This document shows, piece after piece, positions 38,864 to 39,190 of a stretch of DNA of 64,000 nucleotides; within the stretch, counting starts at the first letter, position 1, and the number at the start of each line of letters is the position of its first letter. Location of the stretch: NCBI GenBank assembly GCA_012474735.1, contig GCA_012474735.1_4085.1. One strand, given 5' to 3'. This DNA is from a phage. Under the pieces are notes generated by a model. It was not told the origin of the DNA, made no database searches, and worked only from the letters and a program-made list of their open reading frames with translations. Both the position numbers and the translations under genes were made by a program.

Positions 38864-39162
38864 TATTTTAACCTCATTATAAAAATACTATAGTACTGTA
38901 ATGCGACAATAATATTACTTGTTCTTACTTTTTCCAATCCACATGATACCACATATTCATCCCCATATGTGCGAAACGATACACCATGAAAATTTTTATA
39001 CACTTGCACTACTAATCATAACCTTTCGTCTAACCAACTGCATAGAATTATACTACTTTACGCAAATTGATCAAGTATTGATCAGATCATTTTTTGATCA
39101 ATATTATACAGTTACATTTGTGCACCCTATGGGTTAGTGACGTTCTCGTCTTGATGTAAGTA

Positions 39163-39190
39163 TTATGCCAGTACTGGATGATATTGTCAA
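39163..39190 (-). promoter_or_regulatory. sigma70-type promoter (TTGACA-N16-GCATAAT) followed by CCCATAGGGTGCA motif
   Basis: rc reads TTGACAatatcatccagtactgGCATAAT; transcript would cross GATC cluster toward 38606..38863. Confidence 0.5.

Follow-up and report, generated by a model that had tools for sequence, protein, structure and literature searches.

Within the window, the whole 64,000-nucleotide stretch of phage DNA analyzed here, four GATC sites are packed into 31 bp at positions 39069, 39080, 39085 and 39096 (39069..39099, both strands, within ttGATCaagtattGATCaGATCattttttGATCaa), close to where the original prediction had put four such sites in about 35 bp (about 39070–39105). This GATC cluster is real and goes beyond chance. 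It is located at consensus promoters, it is conserved with turnover of individual sites, and it belongs to a phage that encodes a Dam-family protein. Given these features, the array may represent a Dam/SeqA-type methylation-responsive operator made of phased GATC pairs, an interpretation that we prefer tentatively and that is, as judged from the DNA, plausible but unproven.

A 1-kb stretch around the array shares 99% identity with the Escherichia phages CRJP21, SHEFM2K, PBECO4 and others, and about 90% with 121Q-type phages. Judged by these matches, the window is that of an Asteriusvirus, a PBECO4/121Q-like jumbo coliphage, the matched phages being jumbo myoviruses of ~350 kb. In vB_Ec-M-J, which has an annotated direct terminal repeat of 21,525 bp, the homologous stretch is located at 12.0–12.3 kb inside the repeat, and two copies of the stretch are present in records exceeding 366 kb. 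Terminal repeats of 20–21.5 kb have been published for fEgEco12, Sharanji, vB_Ec-M-J and G17 (PMC13070987, PMC11895373, PMC6563267). These comparisons place the array about 11–12 kb inside a direct terminal repeat of ~21 kb; in records beginning at the left terminus or close to it, it lies ~10.8–12.6 kb from the left end (11.0–11.3, 10.8–11.1 and 12.0–12.3 kb in three of them). Its surroundings in the terminal repeat consist of dozens of small minus-strand ORFans under strong early promoters.

The density of the array, 129 GATC per kb (4 in 31 bp), compares with backgrounds (per kb) of 2.0 for the window, 4.0 for its terminal-repeat part and 1.65 for the whole of TH47, a 121Q-type phage whose complete genome (352,450 bp) was assembled for comparison. 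The second-tightest group of four sites in the window spans 168 bp, and the window is GATC-poor overall (130 sites versus 191 ± 14 in shuffles). Simulation of uniform placement yielded such a cluster with P=0.004 at the window density and P=0.016 at the local terminal-repeat density. The homologous array in TH47 comprises five GATC sites in 70 bp (94619, 94630, 94659, 94674 and 94685) and is both the tightest four-site and the tightest five-site cluster of the 352-kb genome (P=0.003), the next five-site group spanning 212 bp. Comparison with the GATC frequency at large, the check proposed along with the original prediction, thus singles out the array in the window and in TH47 alike, and this rarity, with P values of 0.003–0.016, supports a methylation-responsive operator. 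A contrasting explanation is that the array has no function and arose by slippage or tandem duplication of an 11-bp TGATCAA unit in an AT-rich spacer, hitch-hiking in an accessory cassette. It draws on chance probabilities of only 0.004–0.016 in a scan that was seeking oddities, and on the pairs themselves, which resemble tandem copies of a 10–11-bp unit (window, ATTGATCAAGT/ATTGATCAGAT; 121Q type, TTCTGATCAA/TTCTTGATCAA); it is at odds with the tightest cluster lying in a genome that otherwise purges GATC. Together with the allele comparisons given below, this makes slippage unlikely in our view.

Successive sites are spaced by 11, 5 and 11 bp in the window and by 11, 29, 15 and 11 bp in TH47. 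The window array is laid out as two 11-bp-spaced pairs, mutually offset by 5 bp. Because they are 11 bp apart, the two sites of each pair lie on one helical face, as SeqA requires; owing to the 5-bp offset, the two pairs of the window lie on opposite faces, which weighs against the preferred methylation reading. The minus strand of the array reads GATCAA-aaaa-TGATC-t-GATCAA-tact-TGATCAA and forms an imperfect 37-bp palindrome. In E. coli, a GATC cluster has been defined by at least four sites with a mean spacing below 18 bp, and SeqA is known to bind hemimethylated GATCs on one helical face cooperatively (summarised in PMC493266); moreover, an artificial cluster of GATC sites binds SeqA strongly in vivo (PMC3384311). 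The array falls within this definition and within the site spacing for SeqA (at least two GATC within ~31 bp on the same face), and its agreement with these published properties favors the methylation reading. The earlier suggestion of a SeqA- or methylation-type arrangement is supported in part, by the cluster definition, the 11-bp pairs and the Dam-family gene. It sits less well with the absence of the element from viable relatives and with the conserved TGATCAA flanks, which extend beyond GATC and are unexplained by Dam or SeqA alone; neither protein is known to need such flanks.

On the minus strand, the array is embedded in the order 65-aa gene, promoter P1, leader, first TATAAT, GATC array, promoter P2, the 48-aa ORFan ORF48 and the DksA-like gene. 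The upstream 65-aa gene (39195..39392, minus strand) is assigned to phrog_36844. P1 (39162..39190, minus strand) is a canonical early promoter, TTGACA-N8-CAGTACTG-N1-CATAAT, with 11/12 matches, an upstream TG and a spacer of 17; read as 39190–39162, it agrees with the promoter anticipated at 39163–39190. It belongs to the early promoter family of the phage, TTGACA-N8-CAGTACTG-N1-TATAAT. The 5' leader module (39109..39160, minus strand) contains two small stem-loops, GACGagaaCGTC at 39139–39150 and ACCCataGGGT at 39124–39134. This module of promoter and leader (leader ~50 nt) is repeated at 37564(-), 44778(+), 47256(+) and 49419(+), and also matches Klebsiella and Cronobacter jumbo phages.

The first -10-like TATAAT (39103..39108, minus strand) has no -35, lies 3 bases upstream of the first GATC pair and is kept in both alleles of the region. 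P2 (39047..39074, minus strand) is an internal sigma-70-like promoter with 10/12 matches, composed of TTGATC (39074–39069), N16 and TATAAT (39052–39047). The predicted internal promoter is thus present with GATC in its -35, its -10 at 39047–39052 being displaced by a few bases from the estimate. The GATC at 39069–39072 is located inside the P2 -35, and that at 39096–39099 begins 3 nt past the first TATAAT, so that GATC lies inside or adjoining promoter hexamers, the promoter proximity known from Dam-controlled promoters. Overlap of GATC with a -35 holds in the window allele; the 121Q-type allele has TGGATC, fails the promoter scan and keeps only the -10. Both this loss of the P2 -35 and the missing -35 of the first TATAAT speak against the preferred methylation reading, which gains from another contrast: the pair units sit at promoter-like hexamers, whereas canonical early promoters of the phage are almost free of GATC.

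The region could also act at the RNA level, if self-complementary UUGAUCAA units in the 5' UTR of the P1 transcript folded and thereby controlled the stability or translation of ORF48. Taken from the transcription start to ORF48, the P1 leader has a slight folding advantage over shuffles (z=-1.8 and -1.9), and its GATC units pair mutually. These z-scores are weak, the folds differ between the alleles, and a second GATC-pair site of the phage, described below, is not in a comparable leader. ARAGORN found no tRNA and Rfam (E<=1) no known RNA family in the region, and we regard an RNA element as highly improbable. A plus-strand ORF across the cluster (38919..39137) was rejected, as it is closed in the 121Q allele.

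The gene downstream of the array (38606..38863, minus strand) encodes an 85-aa TraR/DksA-like C4 zinc-finger protein (Pfam zf-dskA_traR, E=1.6e-10), as the original prediction had recognized. The further claim that the stretch is a long leader of this gene needs correction, for ORF48 (38863..39009, minus strand; GTG start; 121Q gp293; phrog_38664) lies inside it. With an early promoter, the array and a second, weak promoter ahead of this probable 48-aa gene, the cassette amounts to a promoter region plus a small gene and is more than a leader. The ORF48 stop codon and the start codon of the DksA-like gene overlap as TAATG. Sequence comparison suggests that ORF48 is probably a real gene, because its frame is open in every allele and third-position substitutions dominate (10, 7 and 19 at the three codon positions between alleles; 1, 2 and 8, and 0, 0 and 3, within the 121Q type). 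Among 5.8 billion proteins, no homolog of ORF48 was found outside Asteriusvirus. Its AlphaFold2 model consists of four strands and a C-terminal helix, for which Foldseek returned nothing significant in the PDB (E>1), and Pfam gave no domain. Structurally similar proteins of 47–60 aa, annotated without function, occur in Erwinia and Klebsiella jumbo phages in BFVD, a lead rather than a result. The possibility that ORF48 is a paralog of the upstream 65-aa gene was rejected, since BLASTP gave no alignment. Likewise, a tie of the cluster to the DksA-like gene as such was rejected, given that 25 other homolog loci, in T4-like and other jumbo phages, are without an upstream cluster.

Alignment revealed that a direct repeat, TTAAAATAAT, with an upstream copy at 39194..39203 and a downstream copy at 38862..38871 (both minus strand), bounds a 332-bp cassette that is absent from phAPEC6, G17 and ECO103 4-12-1. 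In phAPEC6 and G17, the stop of the 65-aa gene directly overlaps the DksA-like ATG. At least 9 records are without the cassette, ~15 have the window allele and ~12 the 121Q-type allele. Missing as a whole from viable relatives, the cassette is dispensable, in keeping with slippage. Moreover, the relatives have no compensating cluster in the terminal repeat: in the cassette-less ECO103 4-12-1, the GATC-rich terminal-repeat region contains no comparable cluster, its tightest four sites spanning 166 bp. Any role of the array is thus accessory and not that of an essential cis element, and its absence from viable relatives counts against the preferred methylation reading. The array belongs to the cassette rather than to the DksA-like gene, because cassette-less phages and other dksA-like loci are without the cluster.

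As aligned, the two alleles are mosaic, with a diverged core between near-identical flanks. Identity between the window and 121Q alleles is 97–98% over P1 and the leader, 76% from the array to the P2 -10, 46% from the P2 start to the ORF48 start, 65% over the ORF48 N-terminus, and 98% over the ORF48 C-terminus and the dksA ribosome-binding site. Three GATC sites of the diverged core stay in register between the alleles, and both TATAAT hexamers are kept. The window allele has one additional GATC; the 121Q type has two, located just downstream of the P2 -10. The base preceding GATC varies (T, C or G), and the GATC cores are invariant. Cores that outlast a divergence to 46–76% identity, with turnover of sites, are consistent with a methylation-responsive operator. 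The same three retained cores argue against slippage, as do the extra TGATCAA sites gained independently in both alleles; the variation within either allele type is too slight to demonstrate that the cores are constrained, which leaves slippage some room. In phage EC.P1, a duplicated array gave the appearance of a third allele. This proved an artefact: the record, deposited as circular, repeats ~127 bp (length counted by eye) at its junction, probably as an assembler overlap.

Arrays of GATC-containing repeats with methylation-dependent function are known from pac and oriR of phage P1; oriC is GATC-rich, as is P1 oriR, and the R-loop origins of T4 sit downstream of a promoter. The array might accordingly be a cis site of DNA metabolism, either the GATC-rich unwinding element of a transcription-primed origin or a packaging signal like P1 pac. 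Rich in AT, the array contains phased GATC heptamers (three TGATCA), lies ~55 nt downstream of a strong promoter and forms the palindrome described above. P1 pac and oriR are likewise arrays of TGATCA-type elements, in which methylation gates a DNA transaction. In contrast to them, the array lies in the middle of the terminal repeat, ~11–12 kb inside its ~21 kb and away from the genome end, is dispensable without a replacement cluster in the terminal repeat of viable relatives, and has no DnaA boxes or iterons nearby. DnaA boxes (TTWTNCACA) number 12 versus 13 expected in the window, the nearest, at 37302, being 1.7 kb away, and GC skew shows no inflection at 39 kb, its sign changing at ~50–52 kb. 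Such a site is therefore very unlikely.

What recurs in the array is a GATC pair with 11-bp spacing that follows a -10-like hexamer and is written out as GATCAA-N4-TGATCAA; each allele has two such pairs. Over both alleles, GATCAA occurs at 8/9 sites, and the flanks are biased to TGATCAA. The exact 17-mer GATCAANNNNTGATCAA is found in 3 copies in TH47, versus about 0.03 expected by calculation from base composition and 0 in 20 first-order Markov simulations. Adjacent GATC sites 11 bp apart number six in TH47 versus about one expected. The third copy of GATCAANNNNTGATCAA, at TH47 26415, is flanked by a terminator and the next gene; here, a -10-like TATATC is followed by the pair. This second site has the same two GATC cores in TH47, PBECO4, 121Q and the cassette-less ECO103 phage, with changes in the spacer; in 121Q the AA flanks are lost and both GATC cores kept. 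The TH47 genome was further searched for units of the form TATAWY, 1–14 nt and GATC-N6-8-GATC. All four such units point in the direction of the genes and none lies inside a substantial ORF; the unit at 94619 has a 2-base overlap with the end of an 87-aa plus-strand ORF, taken as spurious. The enriched 11-bp spacing, the placement and direction of these four units and the conservation of the second -10 and pair in four lineages support the preferred methylation reading, and the recurrence of this architecture at an unrelated locus argues against slippage. A search of IMG/VR with the 18-mer TGATCAATNCTTGATCAA gave 11 matches, all isolated pairs without a surrounding GATC cluster; they are probably coding, as judged by eye, and their number is close to chance by a rough estimate.

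The flanks raise the possibility that the array is an operator for a sequence-specific protein reading TGATCAA heptamers one helical turn apart, with GATC as a portion of the recognized sequence and its methylation incidental or modulatory. ORF48 would then possibly be the most economical candidate reader, making the cassette autoregulated. The motif indeed exceeds GATC, as indicated by the GATCAA bias and the three 17-mers; the array shares sequence with the promoter immediately ahead of ORF48, and within the terminal repeat array and ORF48 are always present or absent together. Furthermore, the ORF48 protein is net basic, and the third-position substitutions back a real gene. The second site is harder to accommodate. 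Since its pair is conserved in a phage without cassette and ORF48, the reader should be common to all these phages or derived from the host, which argues against ORF48 as the common or sole reader, and its 121Q version has lost exactly the AA flanks while keeping the GATC cores. In addition, the putative DNA-contacting strands of ORF48 are 65% identical between the alleles with the motif unchanged, its topology of four strands and a helix is generic and, as noted, unmatched in the PDB and Pfam, and its start signals are weak (GTG or TTG, with the Shine-Dalgarno 12–13 nt away). Pfam found no HTH or RHH DNA-binding domain among 57 terminal-repeat ORFs, and a regulon of degenerate sites was not enriched in TH47 (21 matches with two or fewer mismatches versus 26 expected). 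Weighing these points, we consider a dedicated operator of this kind rather unlikely.

The methylation reading, which we continue to prefer, calls for a methyltransferase. Host E. coli possesses Dam. The phage itself encodes a 173-aa protein of the Pfam PF05869 'Dam' family (E=2.3e-31; SHEFM2K 20223–20744, just outside the window), which supports this reading, although with 89.6 bits it stays under the cut-off of 97.05 bits of the NCBIfam equivalog TIGR01712, which leaves it a candidate for GATC specificity. Further support comes from the cassette-less phage Sharanji, reported to encode an N6-adenine methyltransferase (PMC11895373). The published digests of fEgEco12 included no Dam-diagnostic enzyme except ClaI and NruI, which are blocked only where their site overlaps a Dam site. 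A literature search on Asteriusvirus GATC sites or DNA methylation found nothing, and tblastn with a SeqA query sequence gave no match to a phage-encoded SeqA.

On this basis, we propose a putative model of methylation control, in which the array would act as an operator between two -10-like hexamers, in a dispensable early cassette ahead of the TraR/DksA-like gene. Initially, the incoming virion DNA would be fully Dam-methylated, by host Dam and/or the phage Dam-family enzyme, and host RNA polymerase would transcribe it from P1 and perhaps also from P2. After replication, the in-phase pairs would be hemimethylated and, by the most plausible route, bound by host SeqA; alternatively, methylation might directly alter the use of the -35 or start region by RNA polymerase. 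As a result, P2 and the first TATAAT would be occluded and read-through from P1 blocked. Expression of ORF48 and of the RNA-polymerase modulator might thus be set by the replication and methylation state of the template. Methylation of the array sites, SeqA binding and the sign of the effect (activation versus repression) are what we infer in this model.

More speculatively, Asteriusviruses might use an undescribed promoter class, consisting of a -10-like hexamer and a phased GATC pair, that senses template methylation or replication, with an AP2-like ORF48 as methylation-sensitive reader of TGATCAA. The AP2 fold is a three-stranded sheet packed against a C-terminal helix. A GATC-pair promoter class would fit a GATC-purged genome and a phage Dam-family enzyme; as a whole, we think this combination improbable. 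A strictly lytic jumbo phage would, if this were true, possess a minimal epigenetic timer.

Dam-sensitive regulatory regions are known from IS10 pIN, P1 cre, dnaA P2, Mu mom with its three upstream GATCs, and agn43, gtr and opvAB with GATC pairs in OxyR sites. The array would, if real as a control element, resemble such Dam-site promoters and SeqA clusters, here in a lytic jumbo phage. Like the Dam-sensitive promoters, it concentrates several GATC sites in a promoter region, including one within a -35 hexamer, and the sites are paired one helical turn apart; it is phage-borne, and Dam of the host, perhaps along with a phage enzyme of the Dam type, is available. It differs from them in that the sister allele does not share the -35 overlap and the carrier is a strictly lytic jumbo phage. 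It also differs in showing, by eye, no site for the known partner proteins (consensus sequences of OxyR, Lrp, Fur, CRP and FNR); a comparison by eye with the FNR, CRP, IHF, OxyR, PhoB and ArcA consensus sequences likewise gave no fit in spacing or bases. With at least four sites, a mean spacing below 18 bp and same-face pairs, it also resembles the SeqA-binding GATC clusters of oriC, the dnaA promoter and Henaut/Riva. Unlike oriC with its 11 GATC, it has only 4–5 sites, and unlike the E. coli clusters of Riva et al., which lie in coding sequences (PMC493266), it is intergenic and located at promoter-like hexamers.

The cassette, as distinct from the GATC array, has another likeness. T4-type phages reportedly carry promoter-early stem-loop (PeSL) cassettes, described by Arbiol et al. 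in 2010. Similar to these, an early promoter with a stem-loop is repeated here in a hyperplastic region of small ORFans, and a small-ORF cassette shows presence/absence polymorphism with mosaic flanks (97–98%) around a diverged core (46–76%). In contrast to PeSL cassettes, the indel boundaries are 10-bp microhomologies at stop/start junctions and not promoter modules.

The significance of the array is moderate. If it responds to methylation or SeqA, a lytic jumbo phage could tell incoming from replicated DNA, and this distinction could time a TraR/DksA-like modulator of host RNA polymerase; if it is a mere product of slippage, the finding is an ordinary one. At 40 bp, the array would then be a compact object for tests, and nature provides a comparison between the cassette-plus phages PBECO4 and 121Q and the cassette-minus phages G17, phAPEC6 and Sharanji.

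The avoidance of GATC across the genome is a separate matter. TH47 contains 581 GATC, or 1.65 per kb versus 3.2 per kb expected from base composition. In an order-2 Markov model, the observed/expected ratio is 0.33–0.47 in the bulk genome versus 0.85–0.93 in the terminal repeat. Among the 16 four-base palindromes, only CTAG is split comparably, in the opposite direction (0.52–0.56 in the terminal repeat versus 0.74–0.97 elsewhere). The bulk avoidance is odd for a self-methylating phage and to that extent weighs against the preferred methylation reading. GATC is purged ~2.3–3-fold outside the terminal repeat, and GCGC is absent from the 352 kb; on host defences and the chemistry of phage DNA, the cluster itself may be less informative than this wider pattern.

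Comparison of the ~21-kb direct terminal repeat (about 29.7-51.2 kb in the window; 85-106 kb in TH47, a complete 352-kb 121Q-type relative) with the rest of the genome revealed a difference in tetranucleotide palindrome usage. The bulk genome has been purged of GATC, with an observed-to-expected ratio of 0.33-0.47, but the terminal repeat has not (0.85-0.93). CTAG follows the reverse trend, and the G+C content is 37.8% in the terminal repeat versus 32-35% elsewhere. GCGC is completely missing: neither the 64-kb window nor the whole TH47 genome contains a single site, against ~180 expected under an order-2 Markov model. 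Judged by these counts, ordinary restriction avoidance is far less extreme than such an absence. GTAC, on the other side of the scale, is in excess in the window, at 651 copies and an observed-to-expected ratio of about 1.5. The motif CAGTACTG occurs 59 times in the window, and the listed canonical early promoters carry it within the spacer in the arrangement TTGACA-N8-CAGTACTG-N1-TATAAT, as exemplified on the minus strand at 39162-39190, 37534-37561, 40268-40295 and 50124-50151.

A second conserved unit with paired GATC sites lies beyond the window, at 26415-26445 of TH47 and at about 125-156 of a PBECO4 segment. It consists of a terminator followed by TGTATATC and then the GATC pair, with a spacing of 11 bp, and lies 5' of a gene for a protein of about 174 aa (phrog_11171, function unassigned). 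Both GATC cores are unchanged in four lineages, one of them devoid of the whole 332-bp cassette that harbors the GATC array (four GATC sites at 39069-39099). This array appears duplicated in EC.P1 (PQ657772.1), a record deposited as circular. The duplication arises on joining the record ends, which overlap by about 127 bp, and we read it as an assembly artefact rather than biology.

Further copies of the module formed by the early promoter and its stem-loop leader are found in intergenic gaps of the window at 44778-44910, 47256-47334 and 49407-49475, all on the plus strand and opposite to the neighboring minus-strand genes. About 80 nt downstream of the copy at 44778, there is a hairpin, GGGGAGTTATTATCTCCCC, accompanied by a T-rich stretch. 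These opposing copies could possibly encode small RNAs of about 100 nt.

Two perfect palindromes are also present in TH47. The 16-bp TGATCAGTACTGATCA, 3' of a TATAAT and adjoined by three copies of TGATTACTTA, is located within 106080-106200, close to the terminal-repeat boundary; an equivalent pair was not found near 50.5 kb of the window. The 20-bp AAATTGATCTAGATCAATTT at 136767, outside the window, fits the FNR consensus TTGAT-N4-ATCAA.

Among the 57 ORFs of the terminal repeat (window 28961-52182), one gave a hit to a ParE-like toxin domain at E=6e-11, and there were hits to DUF7249, DUF7247 and DUF7217 among the others. The 48-aa ORFan of the cassette (38863-39009, minus strand) is predicted to fold into a helix plus four strands. 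This predicted fold is shared by 47-60-aa proteins without assigned function from phages including Erwinia phage pEa_SNUABM_47 (TM 0.9, 30% identity) and Klebsiella phage RaK2. Such small proteins may constitute a widespread jumbo-phage family.
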